Shown here piece after piece: positions 15,091 through 41,562 of a stretch of 64,000 nucleotides of DNA; the first letter of the stretch is position 1; the number at the start of each line of letters is the position of its first letter. This DNA is from Waddliaceae bacterium. GTDB lineage: Bacteria > Chlamydiota > Chlamydiia > Chlamydiales > Waddliaceae. Location: assembly GCA_963724325.1 (NCBI GenBank), contig CAVRUH010000007.1, forward strand, positions 128,001-192,000. The letters are read 5' to 3'. The position numbers were made by a program, and so were the translations under genes. A model generated the notes under the pieces. It was not told the origin of the DNA. It saw nothing but the letters and a program-made list of their open reading frames with translations, and did no database searches.

Positions 15091-15164
15091 GGGGCAATAG
15101 CTCAGTCGGTTAGAGCAGCGGACTCATAACCCGCGGGTCACTGGTTCAAGTCCAGTTTGCCCCA
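15091..15164 (+). tRNA. tRNA with CAT anticodon, most similar to tRNA-Ile2 (lysidine) type; CCA not encoded
   Basis: Acceptor GGGGCAA/TTGCCCC, D-arm AGCTCAGTCGGTTAGAGC, anticodon loop CTCATAA, T-arm ACTGG-TTCAAGT-CCAGT; resembles E. coli ileX; lacks initiator features. Confidence 0.93.
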
Positions 15165-15779
15165 CATTTTTTTTACAGGACAAACTTATGACACTCATAG
15201 AATCCAAAATGGAATTTGCCGAAAGGAACCATGCGGTACTTCTATCCCTAGAGGCTCAGATTGTAGCGCACTATCAAAAACGTCCTCGCCTTCATGATCA
15301 CAATGTGATTCGCGTTTTAGAGGCTCTCATAAAGCACTTTAGGGCTTTAGCGACAAATTTCCCATTGCCTCAGCATTCATTATCTGAATTCGAGGGTGAA
15401 ATTTATCTTAGCATTCAATACAATCTAGAAAAATCGGAAGCCCTAACTCCGAATGATTCCTGTGTCCTTTTAAAGTTCCTCAAAAAATCTGTAGAGCTAA
15501 ACAACAAGAGATCGGGCTCACAGGGTTACTTAAACTTCATCAGCCGCTTCATCGAAGTTGAAATAGAGGATTAGAAACCCGAGTCACTCACCTTATTAAC
15601 ATTAAAATATGTGAGTTAGGCTTCCGCATTCCCTAAATGGTTATTTTCAAGAAAAACTTATTTGTTTTTACTCTTCAATAACACAATTGATTTTCAGTGA
15701 CTTATCAGCTTTAAAGCATAATCTTCACGTGTTCAAGAAGAGCCTTCGTTCGCTTCGCTCACTACGGCCAGATGCGCCC
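15123..15779 (+). repeat. About 657-bp direct repeat, copy 1 (tRNA 3' half, 128-aa gene and downstream sequence)
   Basis: Near-identical to 23270-23927; the first ~250 bp recur at 28444-28695. Confidence 0.95.
15188..15574 (+). CDS. Hypothetical 128-aa protein, copy 1
   Basis: ORF repeated at 23335-23721 with 2 amino-acid changes; C-terminal GSQGYLNFISRF motif. Confidence 0.8.
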   Translation: MTLIESKMEFAERNHAVLLSLEAQIVAHYQKRPRLHDHNVIRVLEALIKHFRALATNFPLPQHSLSEFEGEIYLSIQYNLEKSEALTPNDSCVLLKFLKKSVELNNKRSGSQGYLNFISRFIEVEIED

Positions 15780-15819
15780 TCCCTTATTTTTTGCCTTAGC
15801 GAGCGCAGCGTGCGAAGGC
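15742..15819. repeat. GC-rich imperfect palindrome (REP-like)
   Basis: GCCTTCGTTCGCTTCGCTCACTACGGC ... GCCTTAGCGAGCGCAGCGTGCGAAGGC; only the left arm is present in the second repeat copy. Confidence 0.65.
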
Positions 15820-16035
15820 ATTTCTACACAAGAAGTCGAATTCACCAATTAGGCTCTTCGGGCAGACGACAACTGAGTAATTGATATTTTTGAACCAAAA
15901 CAATGCTCGAGAGGATATGAAAAAGACGAAACAAACACCAGCTATGATATCCTTATGAAATTAAGGAATGGATTCACTCGTAAAAATAAAATATAAGATT
16001 ACAGTAAAAAATATAAATTTAAAAAATAGGAGAAT

Positions 16036-16752
16036 TTACTCATTTGAATTTACTGCCTCAGTTTTTCCAAAGAATTGATTATATGCATCTTCGGAAACAA
16101 AAAACTGCTTCCAATATTTTTCGTTATAAAGATGGTCTTCGGAGGTTATGTTCTTACTCACTAGTTCTATTCCTGACTTATACGTGTTTTTACGGTTTTT
16201 AAGTTCGTTTTTGATTGCTGCAAGTTTAATGATCTTCTGAATAGAAATTTTTTCGATTTCATCAACAACAGATTTCCCTGAAATCTTTGAAAGTAAATCC
16301 GTTTGTTGGAAGTAAAAATTTCTATATTCTTTATGACCAGCGCTAATCGTTAAATTTAGATATACTAATGCCAAGAAAGGGTCTAGATTTTCATTAGCAT
16401 ACATTTGAGACACTTCAAATAAAGCTGGGGGATATCCCAAAGAGGCAGCCATTTTAAACTGCTGATTTGCCGCTTTCCTGTTTATTGATGTCCCAGTTCC
16501 TGATAACGAACACTGACCTGCAATATACATAGCAATCTCATCGCCATCAAGAGCAGCATCAAGAACCTTGCTAAGTTCAAATGTATCAGAAGTTTGAACG
16601 CTTTGCAGAAACTCTTCTAAGCCTTTTTTTTCTGTATTAGATAGCTGGAAACCATCTGAAAGATCGCTTTTAGGTGATTCTGAAGAATGGACAGTTGACG
16701 ATCCCAATGCCATTGCAAATACAGTCATTCCTATTGCTATAAGTTTAAACAT
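16036..16752 (-). CDS. Exported Sel1-like repeat protein
   Basis: Signal peptide from MFKLIAIG; AMYIAGQCSLSGTG...AANQQFKMAASLGYPPALFEV Sel1 pattern. Confidence 0.75.
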   Translation of the reverse strand: MFKLIAIGMTVFAMALGSSTVHSSESPKSDLSDGFQLSNTEKKGLEEFLQSVQTSDTFELSKVLDAALDGDEIAMYIAGQCSLSGTGTSINRKAANQQFKMAASLGYPPALFEVSQMYANENLDPFLALVYLNLTISAGHKEYRNFYFQQTDLLSKISGKSVVDEIEKISIQKIIKLAAIKNELKNRKNTYKSGIELVSKNITSEDHLYNEKYWKQFFVSEDAYNQFFGKTEAVNSNE

Positions 16753-16845
16753 ACAAGACACTCCTTTACAATTAGTTAGACTAGCATATACAAATATCAA
16801 CAAAACATCAAACTATTAAATCGTTTAATTGTTTGACTTTCTTGA

Positions 16846-17112
16846 ATGATCATGCCAATCTTGTGGCATAAACTCAAAAAAAGGTGGGTCTTGGTTGTTA
16901 CAAAGCGAAAAGTATCCGGAGGCAAGCGCCGTGATACAGGGAGAAAATGCCTAGATACATTTTTAAGTTTGAAGCAAACTTGCCTTAAGCTGCATATTAA
17001 TTTTATTACATTTCTTAAAGACAGGGTGTGTGAGCAAAACGAGATTCCTCGGCTTGCTGAAATCATTCGCGGGCGTTCTTCAAAATCCCAAAAAACCACT
17101 GAGGCCACTTAG
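16846..17112 (+). pseudogene. IS66-family transposase C-terminal fragment
   Basis: VTKRKVSGG.R...GRKCLDTFLSLKQTC.KL.INF..FL.DR matches the IS66 TnpC C-terminus. Confidence 0.7.
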
Positions 17113-17128
17113 AACCAAACTAGGTCCA

Positions 17129-17378
17129 ATTCACAGACATAGGTAACACTTTGATTCACAAACATAGGTAACACTTTTCAAAATATGGTATAATACTCTC
17201 ATCATTAACAATTTAGGGAGTATTTATGCCTTGGGAGAACTTGAAAGTGGAAAATCTTAGGTTAAAACTGATTCAATCCTTCTTGAAGGGTGAAGAGACA
17301 ATGACAGACTTATGTTTAGAGAATGGAATAAGTCGAAAAACTGGGTATAAATGGTTAGCGAGATATGAGAAATATGGG
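17129..17378 (+). mobile_element. Left-end fragment of an IS481-family element
   Basis: Tandem ATTCACA(G/A)ACATAGGTAACACTTT repeats, then MPW...TDLC...GISRKTGYKWLARY...G HTH typical of IS481 transposases. Confidence 0.75.
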
Positions 17379-18242
17379 GCCACTGTGCTTATGGAATGCA
17401 ATCAATTGGAAACTTGGCTTTTTGAATCACCAGAGCCTTCTGAAACAGCATCGACTAATGCAGCACACTGCATAAAATGTTGGCGTGATTATCTTGAAAT
17501 TAAAGATGCTTACTATGGGGATTTTGAGGAGTTTGAGTTGCCTGAGCCGAAAGAGGGAGAAATTCTGCAAGATTATATCATGCGCATGGCAAGGTTGGTT
17601 GAAGAGGAAGGAAAAGGGTCTAGACTTGAGTGGCGTGCGCTCAAATCCTTTTTGGGTTACATGCGAAATTTGGCTCATGAAGAAATTGCTTTCATCGAGC
17701 AAATCTTTCCTTTTAAAATGAATATCCACGATTCAAGGATTATTCGACTGATTGAGCCGGAGGTTTACCCGATCTCACAGGCAATTGCCGCGGACATTCT
17801 CAAGGAACTGGCCAGGATGTGTAAATATGGAAGGCCGAATGCTAAGCATGGGGCTGCTGAAGCACTTGGGTTGTGCTGGTTGTGTTTATCAGCATCGCGC
17901 ATGCGATTGCCTATCACTCTCACTGATATTCATGGCACGAAAAAAACGTCAGTTTTTGCCGATGAAAAATGTGCTAAATTGCTGGTACCAACTATCTTTG
18001 GAAATAGGTCTCTAAGAATCTCGCGACGACTGGCAAAATACCTGTCAGCGCTTGCTGGGATTTCATCAATAGATCCAAGAAAAACTATTCTGCAGAGGCC
18101 TAAGAGGTCATTAATGAGAGTATTGGATAGAGCTATTGAAAATCTTAGACTCGATCCAAAATTAGGAAATATAACTTTTGTAACCTTAATTTCTTCGCCC
18201 GACATCTCGGGTGGCGATCATCGTTATGTCCGTAATTCTTAA
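17226..18242 (+). CDS. Chimeric ORF: IS481 HTH fused to a degenerate tyrosine-recombinase-like domain
   Basis: The first ~50 aa are a transposase HTH; the rest follows integrase catalytic-domain spacing (LGLCWLCLSASRMR, VPTIFGNRSLRI, LGNITFVTL) but lacks HxxR and a clear catalytic Tyr. Confidence 0.5.
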   Translation: MPWENLKVENLRLKLIQSFLKGEETMTDLCLENGISRKTGYKWLARYEKYGATVLMECNQLETWLFESPEPSETASTNAAHCIKCWRDYLEIKDAYYGDFEEFELPEPKEGEILQDYIMRMARLVEEEGKGSRLEWRALKSFLGYMRNLAHEEIAFIEQIFPFKMNIHDSRIIRLIEPEVYPISQAIAADILKELARMCKYGRPNAKHGAAEALGLCWLCLSASRMRLPITLTDIHGTKKTSVFADEKCAKLLVPTIFGNRSLRISRRLAKYLSALAGISSIDPRKTILQRPKRSLMRVLDRAIENLRLDPKLGNITFVTLISSPDISGGDHRYVRNS

Positions 18243-18336
18243 TAGATAAAAAGTGTCCATCGCTGTGCCGACGTGATTCGATCCATTTCATTTACAATGA
18301 GCGCAATTCCGAAATTAACAACATCAGGAGGCGCCA

Positions 18337-18542
18337 ATGAGCGATTATCAGTATTTGGATATAAATCAAATTGTAGAGGGTGGCAATACCCCTTTTCATT
18401 AGGGCAATTACGTCACTACCTAATTATGCGGCACAAAAATAATCTTGAGATTGCAGTCCGAAAGATTGGAAAGCGGCTGTATTTGCGTAAGGATCTTTTT
18501 GAACAATGGATAGAAGATCAAAAGGAGAGGAAAAATGGATAA
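18337..18542 (+). pseudogene. Excisionase/AlpA-like small DNA-binding protein, frameshifted
   Basis: AGGAGG RBS then MSDYQYLDINQIVEGG; continues in another frame as YPFSLGQLRHYL...RKIGKRLYLRKDLFEQWIE. Confidence 0.6.
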
Positions 18543-18890
18543 TTTTCTCCTCGATGAAAAAGGTGTTTGGTTTGCGCCACCCACACATTCCCTTGGTAGA
18601 TCATCACGGAAGCAAGGGAACCCTGCAAGATTGGCAACAATATATTGCCAAATTTTGTGTGGACAATTCGCGACTTGGCTTTTGTGTAAGTGTGGGGTTT
18701 ACTTCACCCCTTCTTTATTTGTTAGGGGAAGAAAATGGAGGTTTTAACCTTCGAGGACCGAGCAGCGGAGGCAAAACAACTGCGCTAAAAGTTGGTCTCT
18801 CAACTTATGGAAGTGAAAAGATGCTCCATTCGTGGCGAGCTACATCAAACGGTCTTGAATCAATTGCGGCCCTTCACAATGATTGTCTCC
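18535..18890 (+). pseudogene. DUF927 helicase-domain fragment
   Basis: GTLQDWQ..IA...NSRL, GGFNLRGPSSGGKTT (Walker A), SWRATSNGLE..AALHND; truncated. Confidence 0.8.
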
Positions 18891-19175
18891 AAGGAGTTGC
18901 AAGTCTTACTTAGGAAAAATGGATATTCTGATGCAAAGGAAATATCAGCCAAACTCATTGAGCTCTATTCCCGACAGAATCAACGCTTGGAAGAGGACAT
19001 TCAAAAGCTAATTAAGCAAAAGCTTACGAATGACACATCAAATAAACTCACCTTCATGCTTGGTTTGATCCCTACAGTGGATAACACAGACAAAGTCCTG
19101 AAATATGAGCGCTCCCTACAAAAATCGATTTTCCAGAACCTCCTTATGTTGAAAAAACTGCAAGGGGCTTTCTAG
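18891..19175 (+). pseudogene. C-terminal fragment of a hypothetical protein
   Basis: Ends DKVLKYERSLQKSIFQNLLMLKKLQ; no own start, joined to the DUF927 fragment. Confidence 0.4.
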
Positions 19176-19277
19176 AAATGGGTCTGTTTTGGAAAAATGC
19201 AAAGTTAAAAAAACTGTCCTATGACTATGGCGACCTTCTCTAAGTGTATGGGGCAATGTCACTTGCAATTAGGAGGA

Positions 19278-20285
19278 TCAGAAGGTGCCATAGAGGTAGT
19301 TCCAATATGCCGTGAATATTTCAGACTGTTCTGAGGTCAGAGGCTCAACAATAATAAAGCTTTCATCACTGCGTGTAAATGAAGATTGTGACCAGTTTGC
19401 CGAACCATTAACCAAAATACTGTTATCGATGCACATAAGCTTATTATGCATGAAGCTTAATTTTGGGTTGACCTTAACCTCTATCCCTGCCGCCATTAGC
19501 TTTGGTAGATTTCCACCAAAATCAGGTGCTACCACCTGTACTTTTATTCCTCGTTGGTGGGCTTTAATTACTGCATTTGCAAGATCATTGTTGGTCCAAA
19601 CCATCATGGCAATATGGATGCTTGTATTCGCTTGATCGATTTTTTCAATGAGAAATTGTTTAGATTGCTCGTTGATTGACTTTTCTACTTTTTTTTGTGG
19701 AAACCCATCATGAGGCAGAAGACAAAAATAGATGTCTTGACTGAGTAGAGAAATAAGTAATGGTCCATGTTCGGTTCGGTGAGCACTTAAGCGAAATATA
19801 TCTGCTTCGTGATGAAGATATTGCGCTAACTCAGTTGAATTAAATCTTACCATTAAATTTTCTTGGGTTTGATATGCAGATGTTGTAAAGTTTGCGGATC
19901 CAATCCAAATTTCACTTTCATCTACAACCAGTATCTTGTGATGAAGATGACCTTCTCCTGTCGTCCTCGTCACAATTTCAATATTTGGCAGCTTTTTGCT
20001 TGCAATTTCACCTAAATGGTCTCTATCGATCACGACTGTGACTTTTAATCCCTCGTTTGCTTTCTGATTGAGTGCTGCGATAATTTCGGGATCAGATAGG
20101 CTGAATGTAATAATCAGAATTGATTTTTCAGCGTGAAGAATGCTTTCCTTTATCGAAACGCTTAAGTGTTTACGGTCTTGGGTATGATATAGCTGTGCGT
20201 CAGCTGCTACTGTAGCTTCAAGGCTGCCTACGCAAAATACCATAGCTGCTAATAGACTGAAAATTGATAATTTAAATTTTAACAT
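19278..20285 (-). CDS. Exported phospholipase D superfamily protein
   Basis: Signal peptide; two HKD motifs (HHKILVVD...GSANFT and HNKLMCID...GSANWS). Confidence 0.92.
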   Translation of the reverse strand: MLKFKLSIFSLLAAMVFCVGSLEATVAADAQLYHTQDRKHLSVSIKESILHAEKSILIITFSLSDPEIIAALNQKANEGLKVTVVIDRDHLGEIASKKLPNIEIVTRTTGEGHLHHKILVVDESEIWIGSANFTTSAYQTQENLMVRFNSTELAQYLHHEADIFRLSAHRTEHGPLLISLLSQDIYFCLLPHDGFPQKKVEKSINEQSKQFLIEKIDQANTSIHIAMMVWTNNDLANAVIKAHQRGIKVQVVAPDFGGNLPKLMAAGIEVKVNPKLSFMHNKLMCIDNSILVNGSANWSQSSFTRSDESFIIVEPLTSEQSEIFTAYWNYLYGTF

Positions 20286-20299
20286 GGTTAACCTTCCTT

Positions 20300-21259
20300 T
20301 TAATTATTCCAAGCTTGCAATAGATTTTGTCTCAATTTATCTCTCCTCATGGGGTCGAATGTAGAAGATTTGATTAAATTGCGAAGTTCGAGCTCCCAAA
20401 TCTTAAGCTTGCCAGGCTGAATTTTTGTATAACGTTTTATGATAAGCGGTGATGTAGGATTAAGTACCCCACTAATGCCTAAAACAAGTCGCAATTCTTG
20501 TGGAAATTCATCTGAAGGAGTGTCGAGGAAATATTCACTGATCAATTGATTCTCAGCAATGAATCCATTGGGATATGATGCATACCCCACTGTATTTCCA
20601 AAAGCATATAAAGAGACAGAGCTATCAAAAAATTGCAGAAGAACGCCGGCTTTACTGTCCAGATGTTGATGTGAGATAGTATAAGCCACCTCTATCAATG
20701 ATGAGTCCATTCCAAGTTCTTCGAACATGTGTTTCAAGTCCTTTCGCTGTTGATAGGTGTCGCTACCTACATTCTTCGTAAAATTTAAGACTGAGTTTAA
20801 CCCTAGGCGGTTGTGATTCGAGTAGATGCAGAAGTTCAAGGGGAAAGTACTTTCTGCGACCAACTGCGAATAGTGTATTTCACTTACAAATACCCGTGAA
20901 AAAACTTCTAGAGATTCTAGAAAGTTGTTTTTTTTAAATGGCGTTGAAACGAAATGAAAATCCTTTCTGATGGGCACATCTAGGACCTCTTCGACAATTA
21001 TACGAATAATGTCTTGGTAAACTAGAAAATCTAAACTGTCTCCATGATATCCCATGAAGCTGATATTTTCCTGAGCTATAGCTTTATCGAATAACTCACG
21101 GTAATCTAATCCAACACCTTTTCCTTTCAGATTATACTTAATCTGATCGAGTCCAACAAATGCAACATATTGCTTTGAAGGAGATTCAAATTCAGCACCA
21201 TGGATTCTGATGGTCCCACAAATAAATAACAAGCTTAAAAGTAGGATTTTATTATTCAT
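20300..21259 (-). CDS. Exported protein, possible ADP-ribosyltransferase-like fold; paralog of 21252-22274
   Basis: Signal peptide; FMGYHGDS..F.VYQDIIRII, RKDFHF, FPQELRLV, LNP.SPL. Confidence 0.55.
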   Translation of the reverse strand: MNNKILLLSLLFICGTIRIHGAEFESPSKQYVAFVGLDQIKYNLKGKGVGLDYRELFDKAIAQENISFMGYHGDSLDFLVYQDIIRIIVEEVLDVPIRKDFHFVSTPFKKNNFLESLEVFSRVFVSEIHYSQLVAESTFPLNFCIYSNHNRLGLNSVLNFTKNVGSDTYQQRKDLKHMFEELGMDSSLIEVAYTISHQHLDSKAGVLLQFFDSSVSLYAFGNTVGYASYPNGFIAENQLISEYFLDTPSDEFPQELRLVLGISGVLNPTSPLIIKRYTKIQPGKLKIWELELRNLIKSSTFDPMRRDKLRQNLLQAWNN

Positions 21260-22274
21260 TTTTTTCTCTCCACATGTTCAATAACAATTCACGATACTGT
21301 ACGACTTTTGTTTCATCGTAAGGCAGTGTTCTGATTGCTTCACGTAAGTTAGATTCATACTCATTGATTAGTTCGGGATCATTCCTGTCAAAGCGCATGA
21401 TATATAGAGGGGAATACGGATTTAGAGTGACGGAGTTGTTAATGACAAGCCGGAATTGTGCAGGAAAAGCTGTAGAATTAACGCCAAGGAATATTTCGGA
21501 CATTCTTTTCTCATTGAGAATTGGACGTCCGCCGGGCAAGGCATTATAGCATAATTGATTTATCAAATCATAATGATTTTGAAATGCATTGTGATGAGAA
21601 AAGTCGAAGAATTGGAATAACACAGCATTATCCATGGTCATCAAAGGGTTGCCTATTGCAAATAAATCAGGTATCGCTTCGGTTGGTATTCCTAAAGAAT
21701 CAAATAAATAATTTAGTTGAGTTTGGAATCCAACGGTCGTTGCAGATCTATTCCTTGTAAACCAGTAGACAGTGCATTCCCCAAAGTTATCGAAATTCCC
21801 AAAGAGTGAATAATTCATCGACAACAACTGCTCTCGTTGTTCTGGTAACGCGTCAATCACTGCAGGATAGTCTTTCAGGAATTGCTCCTCACTTTCCCGA
21901 TTTAGCATAGGTTTTCCTGGGATGCGCAGAAAGTGAAAGTCTTTTCTAATATGGATCTCGCAAATTTCCTCTATTATTATCCGAATAATATCTTGATAAA
22001 TACGAAATCCTTGAGTGCTGCTATGGTATCCAAAAAAACCAAGCTCTTCGTGGGGAATGATGTGCTCGAAGAAATTGCGATGCTCCAAAGACAACCCGTT
22101 TGTCTTCAGCGCTTGCAATATTTTCTCGTAATTGTAAAATCCGCAAAAGCGATTTGTTGGGGATGCATATACGGCTTCGGTTCGAATCGGCATATCGAAA
22201 TCTACGATTGCCGGAGTGGCAAGCAATGATAAATTACAAAGTGCAATTAAAATAAATAAAATTAATCTAATCAT
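21252..22274 (-). CDS. Exported protein, possible ADP-ribosyltransferase-like fold
   Basis: Signal peptide; FFGYHSST..F.IYQDIIRII, RKDFHF, FPAQFRLV, LNPYSPL. Confidence 0.55.
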   Translation of the reverse strand: MIRLILFILIALCNLSLLATPAIVDFDMPIRTEAVYASPTNRFCGFYNYEKILQALKTNGLSLEHRNFFEHIIPHEELGFFGYHSSTQGFRIYQDIIRIIIEEICEIHIRKDFHFLRIPGKPMLNRESEEQFLKDYPAVIDALPEQREQLLSMNYSLFGNFDNFGECTVYWFTRNRSATTVGFQTQLNYLFDSLGIPTEAIPDLFAIGNPLMTMDNAVLFQFFDFSHHNAFQNHYDLINQLCYNALPGGRPILNEKRMSEIFLGVNSTAFPAQFRLVINNSVTLNPYSPLYIMRFDRNDPELINEYESNLREAIRTLPYDETKVVQYRELLLNMWREKNE

Positions 22275-22425
22275 AATTATTTAACCAATATATTTAAGAT
22301 GAATACATTTTAACAATTATCAATTTATAAGTCAATCATAAACATGCATTTTTATATCGATTTGAATGGACCAATGCAATATGCTTTGTGGGGATAAGTC
22401 TAAATTCAACCATAAAGGAGAAATT

Positions 22426-23019
22426 ATGTTGAACAGTTTTATCCGAAAGTTTTTATTTATCATTGTTCTTACGACATCGCTGTCATCCCCTATTTTTGCT
22501 GTGGATGACTTTCAAGTTGAGTATCAACCACAGGTCATCGAAAAAGTAATTCAGTTTGAGAAGAAAAGCATCTTAAAGCAAAAAGCAAATGGATACCTAT
22601 ATGTCGAAGTGTCTCGAGATTTTATTGCCGAGGCTCTTCCTCTAATTGATGCCCCGGGAAAAATTGTACACCCGAGTCATTATACTAGCAAGAAAGGGAT
22701 TGGAGCCCATATCAGCATTATTTATGAAAATGAGTTGATTGAACATGAAATCTGGGAGATCGATGAGTTGGGGCAAGAGTTCACATTCTCGGTCATGGAG
22801 TTGAGGACGGTAAAACTAAATGACAATAACAAGATGAAAAAACTTTGGCTTTTGGCAGTAGCTGCTCCCGAGTTAGAGAAACTTCGTGAGGGTTATGGTC
22901 TATCATCCCGTTTAAAAAACCATGATTTCCATATAACAATAGGAACTCAAGTACCTGGTAAAGTCTATGTTTTATTCGATGAGATAATCATTGAAGAGGA
23001 GCTGGAAGAAGCAGCATAA
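22426..23019 (+). CDS. Exported 2H phosphoesterase superfamily protein
   Basis: AAGGAG RBS; signal peptide; two HxS/T motifs (GAHISI, DFHITIG). Confidence 0.8.
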   Translation: MLNSFIRKFLFIIVLTTSLSSPIFAVDDFQVEYQPQVIEKVIQFEKKSILKQKANGYLYVEVSRDFIAEALPLIDAPGKIVHPSHYTSKKGIGAHISIIYENELIEHEIWEIDELGQEFTFSVMELRTVKLNDNNKMKKLWLLAVAAPELEKLREGYGLSSRLKNHDFHITIGTQVPGKVYVLFDEIIIEEELEEAA

Positions 23020-23269
23020 GGCTGATTCCAAAGATAAAATCGATTTGGTAGCCTAACAACAGGGGATTCGAATGCCTCTTTTGTGCTTTTGCTCAACTTC
23101 AGTTTAAGCACGACTTTCACAACTATCCTTCGCGTTGCAATGGCGGTGCAATGATTTACCTATTTATCCAATAATATCCATCAGAAACCAGTTGCAATTT
23201 GATTGCATATCCTTTAGCATGTTACTCATAGCGGTTGGATGGTGTTGATTGGAGTGGAAGTCCCCCTCC

Positions 23270-23927
23270 CTCATAACCCGCGGGTCACTGGTTCAAGTCC
23301 AGTTTGCCCCACATTTTTTTTACAGGACAAACTTATGACACTCATAGAATCCAAAATGGAATTTGCCGAAAGGAACCATGCTATACTTCTCTCACTGGAG
23401 GCTCAGATTGTAGCGCACTATCAAAAACGTCCTCGCCTTCATGATCACAATGTGATTCGCGTTTTAGAGGCTCTCATAAAGCACTTTAGGGCTTTAGCGA
23501 CAAATTTTCCATTGCCTCAGCATTCATTATCTGAATTCGAGGGTGAAATTTATCTTAGCATTCAATACAATCTAGAAAAAACGGAAGCCCTAACTCCGAA
23601 TGATTCCTGTGTCCTTTTAAAGTTCCTCAAAAAATCTGTAGAGCTAAACAACAAGAGATCGGGCTCACAGGGTTACTTAAACTTCATCAGCCGCTTCATC
23701 GAAGTTGAAATAGAGGATTAGAAACTGGAGTCACTCACCTTATTCACATTAAAATATGTGAGTTAGGCCCTCCGCGTACCCTCAATGGTTATTTTCAAGA
23801 AAAACTTATTTGTTTTTACTCTTCAATAATGCAATTGATTTTCAGTGACTTATCAGCTTTAAAGCATAATCTTCACGTGTTCAAGAAGAGCCTTCGTTCG
23901 CTTCGCTCACTACGGCCAGATGCGCCC
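23270..23927 (+). repeat. att-like tRNA 3' half (23270-23311, identical) and direct repeat copy 2
   Basis: 42-nt exact match to 15123-15164, then near identity through the 128-aa gene. Confidence 0.95.
23335..23721 (+). CDS. Hypothetical 128-aa protein, copy 2
   Basis: Near-identical to 15188-15574. Confidence 0.8.
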   Translation: MTLIESKMEFAERNHAILLSLEAQIVAHYQKRPRLHDHNVIRVLEALIKHFRALATNFPLPQHSLSEFEGEIYLSIQYNLEKTEALTPNDSCVLLKFLKKSVELNNKRSGSQGYLNFISRFIEVEIED

Positions 23928-24042
23928 GGCGTTATTAAAGTAGACCCAACTGTCTAGCTAAAAAGAGGAACATTTATTATTATGTGAAAGTTTGCGAAGT
24001 AATACCGAAAAATAATGTTCTCCATTGAGATTAGAGAGATTA

Positions 24043-32346: not shown

Positions 32347-32367
32347 CTTTTTTCTGTGTTGGAATTC

Positions 32368-33096: not shown

Positions 33097-34044
33097 TTAT
33101 CCCCAATAACAATTTTTTTTACTAAATTGCTGGTTTACAAATTTTCGACGTAATTTCAGGTTGACTGGTTTGGAGCCCATGTCTTCAATAAAATTCATAA
33201 AATCTTTCATCCATCGTGAACACATTCCTTGAGGTGTATGTTTCATATAATCCCAGCTTTTATAAGCTGCATGTAAAGTATGAAAAGGACGAGAGGCTTG
33301 ATGTTTTCTCTGTCCGCTTCCTTTTCGTTCACTGAGTCCTAATTTCACATAATCATTATTAGACATGCCAACCTTGCAAGTTTTAATTTTATCTAAATTC
33401 TCAATAACCCATTTGATGCCTTCTCGTTTCAACCATTCCGCTGCTTTACTTCGCGTGATTCCCCATCTTTCAGCCCATCTTGCAATTGTTAAGTTTTCAC
33501 CATTATGTGAATAGAAAATACATCCTCTTTTATTATCGTTTTGGTTTTTTACCGAAGCCCAACGACAGTTATCGGGAGAATATCCTTTATTATTGTCGAT
33601 TCTATCAAGAGAGGTGTTTTCAGGTTTCATTCCCATATCCAATAAAAAATTATCAAAGGATCCTGTATCCCGATGCCATCGGTCACAAACGTTGATTCCA
33701 CGATCGACATAATTTTTCTTTTCTTTAATTGTTTTACCTTCGCATCGACGATGCATATAGTGCCAAGCCATATACGTTTTGTAATTAGGACTATTTATAG
33801 CACAGCATCCATGTGTTCTTCTAGGTCCCCCAAGTAAAGTTTGAATTTTTTGGGAGCACTCATCACAACACATGGTCTTAAAAATTTGCGCACTACTTTT
33901 AGTACGTAGTTTCCCGCAATTACAACGAATAATATATTTTCGAGTGCGTCCTACCACTCCAAGCAACTGAACAACAGTCCAATGATTGATGCACTGGCCA
34001 ATAACAATCTTTTTATTTTGCTTATTTTGTATTGATGACAGCAT
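33097..34044 (-). CDS. Phage-type HNH homing-endonuclease-like protein
   Basis: CNCG..., W..M.RRC, RGINVCDRW...F.NFL.DMG.KP...SLDRIDNNKGYSPDNCRWA, with a degenerate second copy at the C-terminus. Confidence 0.8.
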   Translation of the reverse strand: MLSSIQNKQNKKIVIGQCINHWTVVQLLGVVGRTRKYIIRCNCGKLRTKSSAQIFKTMCCDECSQKIQTLLGGPRRTHGCCAINSPNYKTYMAWHYMHRRCEGKTIKEKKNYVDRGINVCDRWHRDTGSFDNFLLDMGMKPENTSLDRIDNNKGYSPDNCRWASVKNQNDNKRGCIFYSHNGENLTIARWAERWGITRSKAAEWLKREGIKWVIENLDKIKTCKVGMSNNDYVKLGLSERKGSGQRKHQASRPFHTLHAAYKSWDYMKHTPQGMCSRWMKDFMNFIEDMGSKPVNLKLRRKFVNQQFSKKNCYWG

Positions 34045-34119
34045 TGATTATAGTTTTTTGTTTGTAAAATGATTGAATTCAAGAAATGGCCCGAAGATCT
34101 CGAACCAAAAAAGCTTATC

Positions 34120-34707
34120 TTAAAAAGGTAAACGACTTTGATAAGGATCACTTTTAGCAGATTCGAAAGACTGATTATAATTTGGAGAATACTCAAAAAT
34201 ATTATCTTGATCTTGCTGTGTTTTTAAAGCTTCAATAATCAGCTTGTAAAAACTTGATAGTTCCTTTTCGATTTTAATTCGAAAATGCGACTTTGTCTCA
34301 ATTAGAGGTTTGGATTGAGATAGAATTGATTTTCCATCTTCGTATCTTTCAAGAATTTTTTCTCCATCAGCATACTTGAAAACTTCGCTTTGAGTAACAT
34401 AGACGTTATAACTAAAACGATATTCAGTCTTATTTTTTCCCCATACTATGCAATGATCTGTATGTCTTATGAATTCGTCCTGATAAGGAAATTTTTCCGT
34501 TGAATTTGGTCTTACAAATCTTGTTTTTTCAGATGAAAAAACATAAGTAAAGGTAAATGGAATACCTGCTGTTTTCAACCTTTCTTCTAATGCTTTAATG
34601 TCATTAGAAATACGGTCCAAATCTTGAAGATGATTAGAAATTACGGAGTCCGCTTCAGAATTAAGTATTTGAAGGGAGGTTGATACAAAAGATTTTGTTG
34701 ATGTCAT
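34120..34707 (-). CDS. Hypothetical protein
   Basis: 195-aa ORF with AAGGA RBS. Confidence 0.6.
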   Translation of the reverse strand: MTSTKSFVSTSLQILNSEADSVISNHLQDLDRISNDIKALEERLKTAGIPFTFTYVFSSEKTRFVRPNSTEKFPYQDEFIRHTDHCIVWGKNKTEYRFSYNVYVTQSEVFKYADGEKILERYEDGKSILSQSKPLIETKSHFRIKIEKELSSFYKLIIEALKTQQDQDNIFEYSPNYNQSFESAKSDPYQSRLPF

Positions 34708-35033
34708 AATATAAATCCTTAAAATTTGTGAATTTTATTTTTTTTAATAATTACACAACAGTGCAATTACCCAGATTCAACCTTGGTTTTTCATTCAAGA
34801 TTCAGGATTCCAATTCAAGGAAAAGCCCATTCAAGGGTTTAAAACAAACTGCTATCAAGCAGTTAATGAGAATGACTTTAGCAAACATTATAATTACATA
34901 CAAGAAAAAAGAAAATTGTTGTCGGTGTTCGAGTTATTTGGCTTTCGAGAAATTTGCATTAATATGCACATGCTAAGTTCATTTATTTCCTTCTACTGCC
35001 TTACCTTCAGAATCTATAAAGATAAGGGGGGCA

Positions 35034-35083
35034 GGCTTGGCATGCGGACATTTGATCGGGATCAAATGTCCGCATGCCAAGCC
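35034..35083. repeat. Perfect 24-bp-arm palindrome of a dispersed REP-like family
   Basis: GGCTTGGCATGCGGACATTTGATC-GG-GATCAAATGTCCGCATGCCAAGCC. Confidence 0.9.
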
Positions 35084-35341
35084 CGACTCTTTTTTCTACT
35101 GATCATTAAGAGAAATATTGTCTTTAACTTCTTCATATTTATTTTCAGCTTCAACAAAAATTATTTAAACAAGTCTATAATTTGATTTTTTGAAACTTTC
35201 ATGATAAGATTTTAAAAAATAACATCGGAAAATTCAATACAAATACTATCAAAAGCATCTTGCTTTTGGCTTTATGATTTTTTGTATGTTTTGAAATATG
35301 AGTACCCGCTTGACTTAATTGGGCACCTGACTAATTACCAA

Positions 35342-36448
35342 TCACGATGTACATAGCGTAAGAGGGATTAGGTCCGTATAAGCAACCATCTCTTTAGGAG
35401 AAATGTAGTTGTGCGCAAAAAAATCGGTTGATGCCGCATTTCTTTTCTCCGCATTATCATTATTTTTTTGAGGAATTGGGATTTGATTGTACGCTTGAAA
35501 TGCCGAAGGCTCAAGCAACAGCATTTTGATGACTGAAATGCGAGAGATTTCCAACAGATCAAACAAGTCTTTAATTTCGGGTGTCTTCTCCTGGCGGATC
35601 GAGGACCCCGGGAAAGAGAGGTCTTTGACATACCCATGGAGGCCTGGAGGTCTATGGTCATCCCAAATAGCCTTTAGCCTTGCCTCAATCTCTTGTGAAG
35701 TGAAAGATTTTCCATTTATAGCAGAGGAAGTATTTGCTAGGAATGATCCTAACCTTGAAGCAACTCGATTAGCATGATGACGACTAGGATTGCCCACCAA
35801 AGCGTCAAGTAAAGGAAACAGCTTGGAAAAAGAGGAACTCGCATAGTGCAGGCGCTCCCAGATTACCGCTTCAAAAAACAATTGTAATGTTAAGTATGGG
35901 CGTGGCATGTGTTGACGTTGTTCAAGACAGTTTAGGATGAGAGGAAATAGTTTACCTGCCAGTGAGAAATCCTCTACTTCGTACTGTAGCAAGGGTTTGC
36001 CATTGACATCATGTGGAAAGAAACTGTCAAGACAAACATTAGTGCGATGGTTGATGTGGTTTGTTTCATGACCCAATAGCCCATCTTCCAGTGTACCGTA
36101 TGTGAAAGATCCTCCGATTACCATACGAATAGGTTTTGCCAAGTGTAGTGCACCCAGCATGGCCCAACCATAACGCCGAGCCCTCTCAACGGAAAGAGAG
36201 GAGTCAACCTTAAGACATGCATGACATTGATCCATTCCAAGCCCATGTCCAGGGTAAACCCATGCACCTAGTCCGACATGGCGTTCTGGTGGGGAACCTG
36301 GGTGAGCTCCATGTACCACGGCGTGATATGGGGTTGAGGCTAAGTAGATGCCGGAAGAAAGAGGAATTGGCAATTGGCGATATAATTCGCCTGCTATTGG
36401 GAGGTGCGTGAAGAGAAAGTAGTGGTCGCCGTGTTGTGGTTCTTTCAT
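35342..36448 (-). CDS. ApeA-like HEPN domain protein, putative defence RNase
   Basis: C-terminal helical domain F..L...LDAL...RVASR...LKAIWDDHRPPGLHG (R-x4-H); GC visibly higher than flanks. Confidence 0.6.
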   Translation of the reverse strand: MKEPQHGDHYFLFTHLPIAGELYRQLPIPLSSGIYLASTPYHAVVHGAHPGSPPERHVGLGAWVYPGHGLGMDQCHACLKVDSSLSVERARRYGWAMLGALHLAKPIRMVIGGSFTYGTLEDGLLGHETNHINHRTNVCLDSFFPHDVNGKPLLQYEVEDFSLAGKLFPLILNCLEQRQHMPRPYLTLQLFFEAVIWERLHYASSSFSKLFPLLDALVGNPSRHHANRVASRLGSFLANTSSAINGKSFTSQEIEARLKAIWDDHRPPGLHGYVKDLSFPGSSIRQEKTPEIKDLFDLLEISRISVIKMLLLEPSAFQAYNQIPIPQKNNDNAEKRNAASTDFFAHNYISPKEMVAYTDLIPLTLCTS

Positions 36449-36616
36449 GATTTTATTCCGTCTGCTGGTGTTTTTCTAGTGTTTTGAGTCCTTATAAGAG
36501 CCATGCCTAAGATCCTTCAAAGTTTATATTTGCAAATGACTCAATGATGTTTGAAATCATAACATGTATTTGCATAAAATTGCAACATATGTTATAATAA
36601 AAAGAAACAGGGGATT

Positions 36617-37414
36617 GTGTTTATGGAAACATCTTTAGGTAAACGAATAAAAGCCTTGCGTGAGGCTCTGAGAATAAGCCAAGAGGAATTATCGCAAAGA
36701 TTAGCATTGGATAGAGCTTCGCTGTCTTTAATCGAAAATGACAAACGCTCATTGAAAGCTGATGAACTTATTTTACTATCAAAATCTTTGAATATTTCGA
36801 TTGATGAGTTGTTAAATCTCAAGTCGTCAACAGAAGTTATTTTGGAACAGGCTCAGAAGCCAAAAGAAAAAAGAAATGACTTACGGATTAGCGTTCCAAG
36901 AAAAAACCTGAAAAAGTTTAAGGAAGTTCTTCTCTATATATTGGGAAAGGTTGGAGCAAAACCAAATGTGGGTGAAACTGTCTTGTATAAGCTGCTGTAC
37001 TTTATAGATTTCAACTATTACGAGAAATATGAAGAACAACTCATTGGAGCCACATACATCAAAAACCATCATGGCCCTACCCCAATCGAGTTTCAGTCCA
37101 TTGTAAATGAGATGATAGAAAACAAAGAAATCGAAGTTGTGAAAAGTAAATATTTTCAGCATCTCCAAAAAAAATATCTACCTCATCAAGAACCCGATCT
37201 TTCTGTCTTTAATGCAAATGAGATCAAAGTGATAGATGATGTGTTGCAAAAATTATCTGGCATGAATGCTTCAACAATAAGTGAATACTCTCATCAAGAT
37301 GTCCCATGGATGGTCACATCGGAAAGGCAAAAAATTGATTATGAATCTGTATTTTACCGAACCCCTGCATATAGCGTAAGAGAGTATAGCAACGATGAAA
37401 TTCAAGCACATTGA
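36617..37414 (+). CDS. XRE HTH + DUF4065 (Panacea/SocA-like) antitoxin
   Basis: N-terminal LGKRIKALRE...SQEELS...ASLSLIE; LYKLLYFIDF, HGPTP, ISEYSH.DVPW. Confidence 0.88.
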   Translation: MFMETSLGKRIKALREALRISQEELSQRLALDRASLSLIENDKRSLKADELILLSKSLNISIDELLNLKSSTEVILEQAQKPKEKRNDLRISVPRKNLKKFKEVLLYILGKVGAKPNVGETVLYKLLYFIDFNYYEKYEEQLIGATYIKNHHGPTPIEFQSIVNEMIENKEIEVVKSKYFQHLQKKYLPHQEPDLSVFNANEIKVIDDVLQKLSGMNASTISEYSHQDVPWMVTSERQKIDYESVFYRTPAYSVREYSNDEIQAH

Positions 37415-37763
37415 GCAGCTAGATAAATTCAAGAAAGATCTAAAAAAACTCCTTAAAAGATTTCCCAGTCTTGAGGAAGATTTAGACTCGCTTGTGAAAG
37501 CACAATTGATTGCTTATCATAAACTCAATGTCGACAATCATGGCATCTTTGCAATCGAAAATCTTGCAATTCAAAATCCTAAAATTTTTAAAGTTAAGAA
37601 GTTTGCTTGCAAATCGTTAAAAGGAAAAGGTGTTCATTCTGGTATTCGCGTCACATATGCATATTTTCCAGTTGAAGACAGAATAGAGTTCATCGAGATC
37701 TACTACAAGGGTGATCAAGAGAATGAGGATAGAGAAAGGATCAAAAATTATTATATAAAATAA
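37395..37763 (+). CDS. RelE/ParE-like toxin
   Basis: FKKDLKKLLKRFPSLEEDL...KGKG..SGIRVTY...IEIYYKGDQEN; overlaps the antitoxin. Confidence 0.8.
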   Translation: MKFKHIEQLDKFKKDLKKLLKRFPSLEEDLDSLVKAQLIAYHKLNVDNHGIFAIENLAIQNPKIFKVKKFACKSLKGKGVHSGIRVTYAYFPVEDRIEFIEIYYKGDQENEDRERIKNYYIK

Positions 37764-37887
37764 CCTATGCTTTTAAAATATTAGCTATTACTTTAAATCA
37801 CCTAGTAAGAAAAGGATTAAGTCTAGAAGAATGGAGATCTTTAAGGATGCAGTACTCTGTATAATCCATTGATATTGGATTCCATTA

Positions 37888-39636
37888 TTAATTTACATTG
37901 TACGTAAATTCTACCGATTCCTTTCTTCTTTCATCTTTTGGGACATAAGTTTTTAATAGATTTCCGAGTAAATTTCCTTTTTTAATCTCATAAGTTTTAA
38001 AATAACGATTAACACGTTGTTTATTAGCTCCCCAATAACTACCAAAACCATCGGGTTGATTAATCCAATCCCAATCTTTCTTTTGGACCATGCCGGTAAC
38101 TCCTGAGGAAACATTATTTTCAAGAAATGGAATATGACGGAAATTCATATATTCTGTATCAATAAAGTAAATTCCTTCTTCACCTTGCGAATCCCTTCCT
38201 AACATGAAATTGTCGCCAAGAAAGTCTCCAAAACCGGTTGCTTCTAATATTTTGAGAAATTCAGTGACTTCTTCTCTTGTAGTGCCTCGTTCCAGAGGAG
38301 TGATATTTTCCGCAAAAATAGTTACTTGATCGGAAGTTAATTCTAAATTGTAAGGACTTACTACTGCAGGAACAGAAGTGATTCCTTCATTCAATACAGC
38401 AATTTTTTTGGGAACCTTAATATGTTTTAAGCCTAGCTCCTCAGCTATTCTTTTTATGTAATTTGCCCCTTGAATTCTACCTAAGTCCCTTCCTTTATCC
38501 CAATAAGCTCCCTTAGGATGATTTTGATCAACAAATTCCTGCTTAGTCAGCAACCTACCAGATTCTCTTAAATCTTCAAAAAATTCTATTCCAATTTGTT
38601 GAACCTCTTCATTGCTCATAGAATGTCTAAAAATACTAGGTCCTAGGGTCCTCTGTTCTATTTTTGTGCGCAATTCAAGATTTTTATGAGGACATTTCTT
38701 GTTAAGCGCTTGAATGAAGTTTGTTTCAAGAATAAGGGCCTTCTCAATGATTTTTTCATTGACCGCATTGAATGAATTCGCAGTTTGAGTAAAATTAAGT
38801 ATTTGAAAAATTATAGATTCACTAAGACCATCATAAAATCCTCGAATCTCTTCTTCTGTAACTTCTTCATTCTTGATGATGGCTATTAATTTTTTTGTAT
38901 TTTGCTCCTCTTCAAGGCGACCAGTATCTTCTTTAAGCCAATTTAAAAATTCTGGATTTGTTAATTCGTCAACTGGTTTAGGCTCTATCTTAACACCAAC
39001 ATTTGAAGGAACAAGATTTGACGAATTTTCTTTTGCTTCCGGTTCTTCAACTTTCTTTAGATATTCTTCATCTCGTTCCCTTGCTTCGTTTTCAAGTTCG
39101 GACTTTCTTCTTTCTTCTTGAACCCTTAGTGCCTCTTCGCGTTCATTTTTTAAGTTTTTGAATGCTGACCGAGCTAAGTGACCCCTAAATAGGCTTTGAA
39201 TTTTTGTTGCGGCGATGTTTTTTGTTTGTTCTGTTGGTTCGTTAATCTTTTCCTGTGAAGATATGTCATTAATATTTTGATCTAAGGAAGAATTAGAGGG
39301 TTGATCATTGGAAGGAATAGAAGATTCAAGCAGAGCAAAACGAATATTTTCTTTAGACTTAATAAATAGGTTTCTTATGGATTTTGAGAAGAGTGCTAAA
39401 CATAAGGTGCATATGACAGCAACAGTTCCCAATAATCCTCTTCCAAAATGTTCTAAACCGGAGAAGGCGCGTTCTCTTTTTTCAATAATGCGATATTGAC
39501 GACCTTTATAATCAGAGCATACTCTATGTCCTTTTTCATCAACGAGTCTATTCGTGCTGTTAAATTTCGTCGCTAAAACCCATTTATCACTAAGGCTAAT
39601 TTCGTTTATTATGCTAATTATTTTAAACCCTGGCAT
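37888..39636 (-). CDS. IQ-motif and kinase-like domain protein, candidate effector
   Basis: Hydrophobic N-terminal segment, AATKIQSLFRGHLAR, coiled coil, GDFLGDN (D-x4-N) and IYFIDTE. Confidence 0.68.
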   Translation of the reverse strand: MPGFKIISIINEISLSDKWVLATKFNSTNRLVDEKGHRVCSDYKGRQYRIIEKRERAFSGLEHFGRGLLGTVAVICTLCLALFSKSIRNLFIKSKENIRFALLESSIPSNDQPSNSSLDQNINDISSQEKINEPTEQTKNIAATKIQSLFRGHLARSAFKNLKNEREEALRVQEERRKSELENEARERDEEYLKKVEEPEAKENSSNLVPSNVGVKIEPKPVDELTNPEFLNWLKEDTGRLEEEQNTKKLIAIIKNEEVTEEEIRGFYDGLSESIIFQILNFTQTANSFNAVNEKIIEKALILETNFIQALNKKCPHKNLELRTKIEQRTLGPSIFRHSMSNEEVQQIGIEFFEDLRESGRLLTKQEFVDQNHPKGAYWDKGRDLGRIQGANYIKRIAEELGLKHIKVPKKIAVLNEGITSVPAVVSPYNLELTSDQVTIFAENITPLERGTTREEVTEFLKILEATGFGDFLGDNFMLGRDSQGEEGIYFIDTEYMNFRHIPFLENNVSSGVTGMVQKKDWDWINQPDGFGSYWGANKQRVNRYFKTYEIKKGNLLGNLLKTYVPKDERRKESVEFTYNVN

Positions 39637-39916
39637 TTTTCACCTAATTGATTACAAGTTAATGACTTTAAAGAAAATTGTAACAGATTAGATAATTTAA
39701 ATCAAGACCAAACTTCTACACCTCTACGCCATGAATGGCACTTTGTGACCAACAGGTTTAATCTGATAAATGTAAGAATTGGACCAACGGTGGACCAAAT
39801 AGGGACATCAAATTACATGATATCAGATAAAATTAGAATAGACTGAAAAGTCTTGAGGCTGCTATCTTGATTTATGTCAGCTCTTGTAGTAAGCGATAGT
39901 TTGAGGATCGCTGACA

Positions 39917-40010
39917 GACTCATAACCCGTGGGTCATTGGTTCAAGTCCAGTTTGTTCCACTTTTTTACGGTACACACTTATGATACCCATAGAATTTGC
40001 CGAATAAATC
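39917..40010 (+). repeat. att-like tRNA 3' half (4 mismatches) and eroded start of the 128-aa gene
   Basis: GACTCATAACCCGTGGGTCATTGGTTCAAGTCCAGTTTGTTCCA then ...ACTTATGATACCCATAGAATTTGCCGAA. Confidence 0.88.
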
Positions 40011-40300
40011 CCTAAAAAATATGCGACCGGTTCAGCACAGGTTTCATCTCATTTCACAAGATTTTCGGATGCATCAACATACTATTGAATTTTTACTTTA
40101 CAGCTTTACTCTGCTATTTATGTGAATCCAATAAACATCGTCTGTCTGGATAAAATAAATAATTTTGATTCTGGATTTTTCACAGCGCATGTGTTGGAGT
40201 ATATGGAAATTTCAAATAAAATCTCCGTCTAGACATGGAATAGTTTTAGTATTATAGTGAGTAAATATGTTATCGTAGAACCTTTAGTTTTGGAGACCTT

Positions 40301-40750
40301 GTGGCAATGAAGAATTACAGAGTTGAATTTATTGATAAAGTTTCTGAAGAATTAAAGAAAATAGTGCTTGAAGGTTTTGGCCGTCACTCTATCGAAATGA
40401 CAGGGCATGATGAAAAATTTGAATCTGTTGCTTTTGTGGCCTATAATGGTGATAATTTTGCTGGAATAATTGAAGTTGTTTTATTTTGGGGAGCTCTTCA
40501 CATCAAAAAAGTTTATATAAATGAAGACTGCCGCGGGCAAGGACTTGGCAATAAACTAATGGAACTTGCTTGTGGATATGGTCGGGAAAATAAATGTCCA
40601 TTCGCATTCGTTGAAACGATGAGTTTTCAAGCACTGGGTTTCTACCAAAAAAATGGGTTCCAATTAGAATTTACTCGTCCTGGATATTCACATGGATGCT
40701 CATTTCATTACTTAAAAAAAGACCTTATGGTACACCTACGCTTCATTTAG
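40301..40750 (+). CDS. GNAT acetyltransferase
   Basis: RGQGLGNKLM, QALGFYQKNGF. Confidence 0.88.
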   Translation: MAMKNYRVEFIDKVSEELKKIVLEGFGRHSIEMTGHDEKFESVAFVAYNGDNFAGIIEVVLFWGALHIKKVYINEDCRGQGLGNKLMELACGYGRENKCPFAFVETMSFQALGFYQKNGFQLEFTRPGYSHGCSFHYLKKDLMVHLRFI

Positions 40751-40962
40751 CTTGCATACGACCCCTTCTGATTTTGCAAAGATCTATTAATCGACTGGGA
40801 ACAATTTGATACTTGCAGTAATGACGCTGCCGACAATGAGTTTCTTGCCAACTGGTGGAAAAACTATGCTCTCTGATAAAATTATGAAAACAATCTTACA
40901 CGAAGAAAAAGAGACCGATGTCAATCAGAGATATGAAAGTAAATAATTATATGGTTTAGGAA

Positions 40963-41376
40963 ATGCGCAATATGAAACAAATAAATCGCTACGGTGCCTA
41001 TGGGATTGTTCTAGTGGATTCGAAAATTCTGCTTACTCAAAAAAGAGGAGGCCCATACAAAGGGCTATGGGATTTGCCTGGAGGTGGTATTGAGTTTGGC
41101 GAGTCCCCTGAAGAGGCTCTTCGGCGTGAACTACATGAAGAGGCAGCATTGACTGCAGATGAGGTCCATCTGTCAAGAGTCATAACCTTCAATGGAAAAT
41201 ACGATAATGACGGTGAAGAATATATTTTTCACCACATCGGTCTCATCTATAGCGTTTTGAATGTAACATCAAATCCAAATCTAATGCCCGAAGAAGAATT
41301 GCGATGGGAGGTGCCAAGGAATATCGACAGGGAAGAGCTAACGCCGTTTGCTAAACAAGTAATAGAAGGCTTGTAA
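40963..41376 (+). CDS. NUDIX hydrolase
   Basis: LPGGGIEFGESPEEALRRELHEEA Nudix box. Confidence 0.92.
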   Translation: MRNMKQINRYGAYGIVLVDSKILLTQKRGGPYKGLWDLPGGGIEFGESPEEALRRELHEEAALTADEVHLSRVITFNGKYDNDGEEYIFHHIGLIYSVLNVTSNPNLMPEEELRWEVPRNIDREELTPFAKQVIEGL

Positions 41377-41532
41377 CATTTCGATGCAGAAGTCATGGCA
41401 CGCATATGGAACAGTTCGGCCCTATAAATCTAACCAAGTCTCAGCTTTTGCCTGTTGAACTTTTGCAACCCTTCTGATATCCTATTGCTGAGAACAGTTA
41501 ATGACTATTGTAAAGTATTGGAAATAAGCGGC

Positions 41533-41562
41533 CTCATAACCCGCGGGTCACTGGTTCAAGTC
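41533..41562 (+). repeat. att-like tRNA fragment (30 nt identical, truncated)
   Basis: CTCATAACCCGCGGGTCACTGGTTCAAGTC. Confidence 0.88.

Follow-up and report, generated by a model that had tools for sequence, protein, structure and literature searches.

Bacterial tRNA and tmRNA genes can collect integrated islands that accumulate next to one another and decay in place. This is described for the streptococcal cis-mobilizable elements (CIMEs; PMC5704250), for Alteromonas (PMC4898812) and for Prochlorococcus (bioRxiv 10.1101/2020.12.28.424599), and a study on Dehalococcoides reports 15 tandem islands devoid of integration module at ssrA (PMC3146451). The Islander survey gives only four tandems of at least three islands with an integrase in each member, for 2168 genomes (PMC4383910). 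Here, we analyzed a 64,000-nucleotide (nt) stretch of the genome of a Waddliaceae bacterium (assembly GCA_963724325.1, contig CAVRUH010000007.1, positions 128,001 to 192,000), hereafter called the window, in which the 3' half of a tRNA gene is repeated five times downstream of the intact gene, delimiting five small units. We consider, with a probability of roughly 0.78, that each of these units represents the right-hand part of a tRNA-targeting island, truncated on its left side and probably immobile.

The only tRNA gene that ARAGORN finds in the window is intact and lies on the forward strand at 15091..15165, downstream of pncB-pncA-yggU. It bears a CAT anticodon within the loop CTCATAA (15123-15129), is a non-initiator tRNA, and constitutes the integration target. 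The initial annotation had named it tRNA-Ile2; its non-initiator nature holds, and it may be either Ile2 or elongator Met, since similarity to tRNA-Ile(GAT) fails to separate it from the other non-initiator tRNA-CAT (scores 26 vs. 29). The 43-nt 3' half, from CTCATAA onward, recurs on the same strand and in the same orientation at 23270..23312 and 28444..28486 (0 mismatches each), at 32305..32347 (2 mismatches), and at 39919..39961 (4 mismatches, all C to T). A fifth copy (41527..41562, forward strand) is identical to the tRNA over 35 of 36 nt; from 41533, it is exact for 30 nt and divergent thereafter, and the 13 nt of the acceptor side are absent, with no match to this displaced piece anywhere in the window. 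The spacings between successive cores are 8147, 5174, 3861, 7614, and 1614 nt. A 30-nt probe gave six matches in the window vs. 0.00 expected from 100 shuffles, and across the 2.37-Mb genome, a search tolerating up to 6 mismatches added a single hit, in another tRNA-CAT gene. The copies, positions, and mismatch counts are those that the initial annotation had given.

Six-frame searches for tyrosine and serine recombinases (PF00589, PF07508, PF00239) gave no match in the window, and tblastn with the four tyrosine recombinases of the genome and with the integrases of relatives detected no remnant there, confirming the lack of an intact integrase already noted. The genome (2.37 Mb in 11 contigs, about 85% complete) encodes these four tyrosine recombinases outside the window; from their sequences, they read as XerC-like, XerD-like, a tRNA-Lys integrase, and a P4-like integrase. 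The last two are island integrases.

The organization of intact islands was established in relatives. Three hundred genomes were pattern-screened and those with many matches were chosen, giving 46 stretches from 44 genomes. Bounded units were obtained in 43 of the 44 (90 units, after removal of one 56-nt false unit); because deep stacks were favored in choosing this set and its genomes are related to one another, the counts should not be taken as frequencies. A full tyrosine integrase is encoded in 38 units and a stub in 15; the remaining 37 have neither. The full integrases (PF00589, about 355 aa) belong to the family of the tRNA-Lys integrase and usually start 200–400 nt after the core. The median unit length is 12.9 kb with an integrase vs. 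3.6 kb without, the latter value having been computed with the false unit and the five units of the window included. Anticodon-loop integration by tyrosine integrases, as invoked by the initial annotation, is supported. Intact islands in G006, G007, and G038 possess primase/helicase modules, accompanied by DUF5681 in G006, and resemble satellite-type islands.

The ends of intact islands display a tandem 6–7-nt motif with an 11-bp period, located about 136 nt upstream of the closing core and, at the other end, 114–132 nt downstream of the opening core, and the motif class usually matches between both ends. From their position and by analogy with the arm-type sites of lambda (PMC1470463), these tandem motifs are likely integrase arm sites. 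The left motif is present in 31/38 units with integrase vs. 8/37 without (P 2e-7), and the right motif in 35/38 vs. 30/37 (P 0.19). In the window, the right motif is found in 5/5 units, at −136 to −138 from the core and with 0–2 mismatches (background, one in 300 random 50-nt windows): at 23134..23150 on the forward strand in unit 1 (GGTGCA class, 136 nt before the core), 28308-28324 in unit 2, 32168-32184 in unit 3 and 39781-39797 in unit 4 (both GGACCA class), and 41397-41413 in unit 5 (degenerate GGCACA class). The left motif is found in 0/5 units (4 mismatches at best). Moreover, the right and left arms share a 14-nt inverted match in 24/38 units with integrase, in 2/37 without, and in 0/5 window units. 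The right arms of the window, with their three classes, match those of the integrase-bearing islands of relatives at 71–82%. Altogether, the data indicate that decay is strongly one-sided: left arm and integrase are lost, and the right arm is kept. The absence of left motifs, set against 31/38 in integrase-bearing units, speaks against the mobilization in trans that the initial annotation had put forward as one of two alternatives. As for the 14-nt match itself, it lies 30–50 nt before the core in the right arm and just upstream of the integrase start in the left arm, and may represent another site bound by a protein, or an RNA pairing that would exist at attP alone.

Unit 1 (15166..23269) retains more of such an island. 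It comprises a duplicated left end, named alpha and described below, scraps of SEL1-like and insertion sequence (IS) origin, the right part of an island encoding an integrase partner, and the right arm. A fusion open reading frame (ORF) at 17226..18242 on the forward strand joins the N-terminus of an IS481 transposase (aa 1–56) to the body of this partner, the member of an unannotated family of about 340 aa that is present in 36 of the 300 genomes scored and that directly follows the island integrase in 25 of the 29 other loci (30 were fetched). Just downstream, on the same strand, lies a decayed mobility module (18273..19175) with a helix-turn-helix, HTH_17 excisionase-like ORF (weak, E 0.016), a DUF927 primase/helicase fragment, and a C-terminal fragment that is 71% identical to a 288-aa gene present in islands of G006 and G007. 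Because the partner body and a G006/G007-type module follow one another, we read unit 1 as an integrase-partner island minus its left arm, its integrase, and the start of its partner. An IS end is found at the joint. This mobility remnant and the intact islands of relatives favor the other alternative of the initial annotation, namely that the stack has lost its integrases. The same annotation held that its view of an integron-like archive would fall if relatives showed each unit to be a mere deletion remnant of a large integrase-bearing island, and this is largely what unit 1 and the 0/5 left-arm count reveal.

The partner itself is of interest. The top 19 structural matches of its predicted model (predicted local distance difference test score, pLDDT, 82) are tyrosine recombinases or topoisomerase IB, the best one being an integrase (Z 11.2, root-mean-square deviation 3.0, 144 aligned) and MrpR scoring Z 7.7; language-model neighbors agree with a tyrosine-recombinase fold. 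Foldseek returned nothing at E ≤ 0.001 (best, XerH, E 0.0075). In the family alignment, the terminal Tyr is present in only 27/50 rows and no HxxR box was found, but a His is present in 48/50 rows and two Arg are invariant. The partner is likely non-catalytic, in the manner of MrpR. Could ORF 17226 be the missing integrase? This is unlikely: it is an IS481 fusion deprived of the family N-terminus, it bears an Asp at the near-invariant His and no HxxR box, and profile–profile comparison with 40 cognate integrases gave nothing (probability 0.4%). Another study has reportedly described elements in which an integrase is paired with a "tyrosine recombinase fold protein"; our own literature search, largely confined to openly available papers, found no description of the partner family. 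MrpR of SPbeta (PMC10516654) has a tyrosine-recombinase fold lacking much of the catalytic set, as is likely for the partner. The likeness is drawn at the level of the fold and, unlike MrpR, the partner directly follows an island integrase.

We propose that the units entered successively, each by means of its own tyrosine integrase, through a crossover that would take place in the 7-nt anticodon loop, so that the newest unit would adjoin the tRNA. The left end, with left arm and integrase, would have been lost later, core and right arm being kept. Mobility would be lost at this step because tyrosine integrases of this type, by analogy with lambda, presumably need arm sites on both sides. In seven of the eight mixed stacks of relatives, all units with a full integrase lie inward of the broken ones (P about 0.001). 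This supports entry at the tRNA and a rough chronological order, and bears out the successive accretion that had initially been proposed.

The left ends of the units bring a second layer of information. Units 1–3 open with alpha, in copies 95–97% identical. Copy 1 (15166..15788, forward strand) contains a 128-aa ORF (15188-15574) of no known family, copy 2 extends to 23936 (ORF 23335-23721), and copy 3 ends at 28695, where the 3' half of an IS481-type element cuts into it. With the tRNA half included, 15123-15788 is 97% identical to 23270-23936 over 667 nt and 96% identical to 28444-28695 over 253 nt; in addition, the ~135 nt upstream of the tRNA-half copies are related pairwise. The repeated tRNA half described by the initial annotation is hence real, and the repeats are longer than it had stated. 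A short decayed relative of alpha starts unit 5, and a broken homologue of the 128-aa ORF (49% identical) lies inside unit 2 (25990-26253). Copies 1 and 2 differ in a mosaic manner, five of their seven coding changes falling in codons 16–21 of this ORF. A hairpin resembling repetitive extragenic palindromic (REP) elements, at about 15743-15819, is complete only at copy 1. The ORF has three non-self homologues in the protein database and no match in Pfam, NCBIfam, PADLOC, PHROG, or Atlas. It was considered as a mobility factor and rejected: homologues exist in 7/400 relatives, and one of these seven loci is near a degenerate core.

Alpha of units 1–3 would be a copy of the neighboring outward left end, and two routes can be envisaged. 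In the first one, to which we give slightly better than even odds, a faulty excision circle containing right arm, core, and downstream flank, without integrase, would re-enter the empty site, or an unequal exchange would occur between an excised and an unexcised sister. The lambda-bio transducing phages are an analogue of such a circle. In the other, whose chances we put a little short of even, a unit would be duplicated in tandem and deletions would then arise across the junctions, leading in more steps to the same outcome. Outside the window, using a threshold of at least 75% identity over 80 nt, the left end matches the next outward one in 7/51 units without a full integrase and 1/37 with one; five matches exceed 90%, all at adjacent junctions of units without full integrase (G001, G083, G104, and two in G139). 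No description of left-end duplication or of flank-duplicating aberrant excision was found in our literature search, with the coverage indicated above. One may go further and imagine a recurring one-step domestication in environmental chlamydiae, in which an integrase-less faulty circle re-enters the empty tRNA site, locking the cargo and duplicating the left end, with an order-wide family as parents whose integrase is often paired with the presumably non-catalytic partner, which may steer recombination; we consider this broader scenario improbable.

Several observations weigh against this reading of the units as left-truncated, probably immobile islands. The pooled intactness of proximal and distal units does not differ significantly (18/36 vs. 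17/45, P 0.37), and the outermost core of the window has 0 mismatches in its 30 nt, making the mismatch gradient weak evidence of age. The motif list was partly learnt from the sequence set that it scores, and other left-arm classes exist, so alpha could hold an unrecognized site. With a genome about 85% complete, a cognate integrase could be unassembled. The relatives compared lie above the strain level, so the units may have been truncated in place or may have arrived in that state. Among the 37 units of relatives counted as integrase-less, at least two have a large serine recombinase instead, whole or as a remnant. Concerning the left ends, the enrichment of adjacent duplications in integrase-less vs. 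integrase-bearing units is weak (P 0.06, window included), the alpha of unit 3 has no match in its neighbor, unit 4, and the hairpin is whole in the inner alpha and cut in the outer one, which is the reverse of the simplest prediction of flank capture.

Could the alpha-led units rather be non-autonomous cassettes, excised and integrated by an integrase acting in trans, such as that of the tRNA-Lys island? The latter belongs to the same family as the tRNA-CAT integrases of relatives (40–57% identical) and its island has arms of the GGTGCA class, as do units 1 and 2; the near-identity of the left end in the three tRNA-proximal units and the perfect cores 1 and 2 are also what such cassettes could display. 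However, the tRNA-Lys core differs from the tRNA-CAT core in both loop and stem, the two left-arm markers are absent in 5/5 window units, the coding part of alpha begins 22 nt past the core, and alpha is absent from every other stack examined. The proposed search for circular junctions, made in public runs, revealed neither a circular joint involving the cores nor a skipped unit, in sparse low-depth contigs that make it a weak test. We therefore hold this explanation to be improbable for the window, even though trans-mobilizable mini-islands probably exist in the group: 8/37 integrase-less units of relatives keep the left motif, in five cases matching the right one. These five units, of 1.2–4.8 kb and without tyrosine integrase match (L098 in G083, L108 in G158, L119 in G110, L129 in G062, and L105 in G252), are better candidates for mobilization in trans than the window units.

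The 667- and 253-nt near-identical blocks and their mosaic differences (5/7 coding changes in codons 16–21) would also be expected if a local segmental duplication had copied the end of the tRNA gene together with the adjoining flank, no integrase being involved. But every copy starts at the anticodon loop, behind an island-type right arm that belongs to one of three classes common to other island families, and cores 3–5 are not accompanied by a long block; the fixed distance of the arm motifs in 5/5 units largely refutes this explanation, which we regard as very improbable. An artefactual stack deserves mention since 667-nt near-identical repeats occur here in a metagenome-assembled genome and no read set spans the region. 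Yet each copy has flanks of its own, and the copies are not identical in sequence. Both alpha versions (15559-15716 and 23727-23877) have exact counterparts among short contigs of soil runs, and a further contig covering junction 1 (23166-23381) shows no differences, although the runs possibly stem from the source campaign. Stacks like this one also exist in single-contig genomes, e.g., G234 and G209. Such an assembly error is hardly credible. Truncated, probably immobile islands are thus the explanation that we retain.

Stacks of this kind are common in this group. In G139, eight cores within about 24 kb delimit seven units without any full integrase; in G234, seven cores delimit six units, all with an integrase; and G209 has six cores. 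A depth of five is not exceptional, because these stacks equal or exceed it. Among 20 other stacks of at least two units starting at the tRNA, eight have no full integrase, four have one in every unit, and eight are mixed. As the initial annotation had suggested checking, the locus varies between relatives, with 1–7 bounded units per genome and differing contents across the 43 genomes, a comparison made above the species level. This tRNA is an order-wide hotspot of gene acquisition in environmental chlamydiae; within the reach of our literature search, no paper on tandem tRNA islands in chlamydiae or on this hotspot was found. A second island class uses this tRNA: at three loci (L073 in G179, L115 in G217, and L070 in G139), a reverse-strand large serine recombinase gene overlaps the core by its last codons. 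Moreover, G219 has additional tRNA-half repeats, both at its second non-initiator tRNA-CAT and next to a GTT-loop tRNA (G219:C1:1252166-1263446 and 1762306-1782982), and the island family may stack at several tRNAs.

The cargo of the five units is diverse. In unit 1, genes for a phospholipase D-like protein, two secreted-type proteins of no known family, and a 2H phosphoesterase occupy 19278..23019. Unit 2 (23313..28443) contains unassigned ORFs behind its alpha copy. In unit 3 (28487..32304), the IS481-type 3' half runs to 29504 and is followed by an AbiEi-type antitoxin with a split nucleotidyltransferase (29872-31255) and by a HEPN-like ORF (31491-32033). Unit 4 (32348..39918) carries an HNH endonuclease (33097-34044), an HTH-Panacea antitoxin with a downstream 122-aa ORF (36617-37763), and an IQ-motif protein (37888-39636), and unit 5 (39962..41532) encodes GNAT (40301-40750) and NUDIX (40963-41376) proteins. 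The defense and effector cargo announced by the initial annotation is thus partly recovered: AbiEi_2, SocA/Panacea, and one IQ motif pass the Pfam cut-offs, HEPN stays below its own, and PADLOC gives only single-domain matches in the window. Beyond the last core, the region 41589-64000 has accessory-looking genes (Cass2/GyrI-like, SDR, Macro, GNAT, M3 peptidase, and VanX-like dipeptidase) and little synteny to G001; it is possibly an older accretion with lost cores.

Elsewhere in this genome (G000), an intact 15-kb island at tRNA-Lys (G000:C1:53383-68361) has a perfect 51-nt repeat, a full integrase, and one arm-motif class at both ends. A 2.7-kb islet at tRNA-Thr(CGT) (G000:C1:246056-248822) is bounded by a perfect 47-nt repeat and has a right-arm motif, no integrase match, and an AbiEi-like segment in common with unit 3. 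An element of about 1.87 kb encoding a large serine recombinase of about 552 aa is present in seven genome copies at least 99.5% identical, on C1 (23998-25864, 25982-27853, 27894-29765, and about 440960-442830) and on C7 (112445-114305, 230229-232099, and 257343-259214). Its ends sit within a REP-like palindromic repeat that is present in dozens of dispersed copies, which suggests a recently active IS-like element targeting this repeat. At G000:C5:4356-5500, a 228-bp tandem repeat of about five copies stops at the intact tRNA-Arg(CCT); each copy combines the initial 24 nt of this tRNA with a REP-like palindrome. Near-perfect palindromes of 65–78 nt at 35020-35097 and 48552-48616 of the window belong to a second dispersed repeat family, of which C1 and G001 contain further members.

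Stacked decayed islands arise by an ordinary, known process, of which this locus is a well-resolved example; its interest lies mainly in how one-sided the decay is, in the duplication of left ends, and in the partner protein. The family also provides about 40 full integrases along with predicted att arms, possible tools for site-specific integration in a group with few genetic tools. The integron-like character proposed by the initial annotation is not borne out. As in integrons, gene blocks are ordered and the newest likely lies at one end. However, the array has no adjacent integrase (no PF00589 match in the window, hence no integron integrase), the units are delimited by double-stranded att cores that derive from the tRNA and bear island arms, and they are multi-gene, coded on both strands, and scarred by IS.

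Closer counterparts are found among tRNA islands. By the Islander measure, chlamydial stacks are deep; the relatives G234 and G219 fit its tandem arrays, whereas the window offers fragments without integrases. The Dehalococcoides ssrA locus similarly gathers several tandem islands at one RNA gene (PMC3146451), but with serine recombinases and a 20-bp repeat at a tmRNA gene instead of the tyrosine family and a 43-nt tRNA half. The additive islands of Alteromonas share the tRNA hotspot and the partial tRNA repeats downstream of cassettes (PMC4898812), and here the parent islands, the arm motifs, and the one-sided loss are mapped in addition. In CIMEs and ICESt1-type elements, integration, loss of the integrase, and re-integration at the same site produce tandem decayed elements (PMC5704250). 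A CIME has both attL and attR, whereas the window units, judged from their sequence, have lost integration and transfer genes, keep attR in 5/5 cases (core 5 being truncated), and show attL markers in 0/5; their cores and right arms are beside no conjugative or integrase-bearing element. Finally, tycheposons and islands resembling phage-inducible chromosomal islands (PICI-like) have an inward integrase next to the tRNA and a small primase/helicase module (bioRxiv 10.1101/2020.12.28.424599), traits that we observe in G006, G007, and G038 and of which unit 1 retains only the DUF927 fragment. In tycheposons too, older elements are displaced outward by new arrivals, the remnants include broken integrases as well as partial tRNAs, and flank capture has been proposed. 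The chlamydial parents differ in that, behind the integrase, they often bear a second gene with a tyrosine-recombinase fold.

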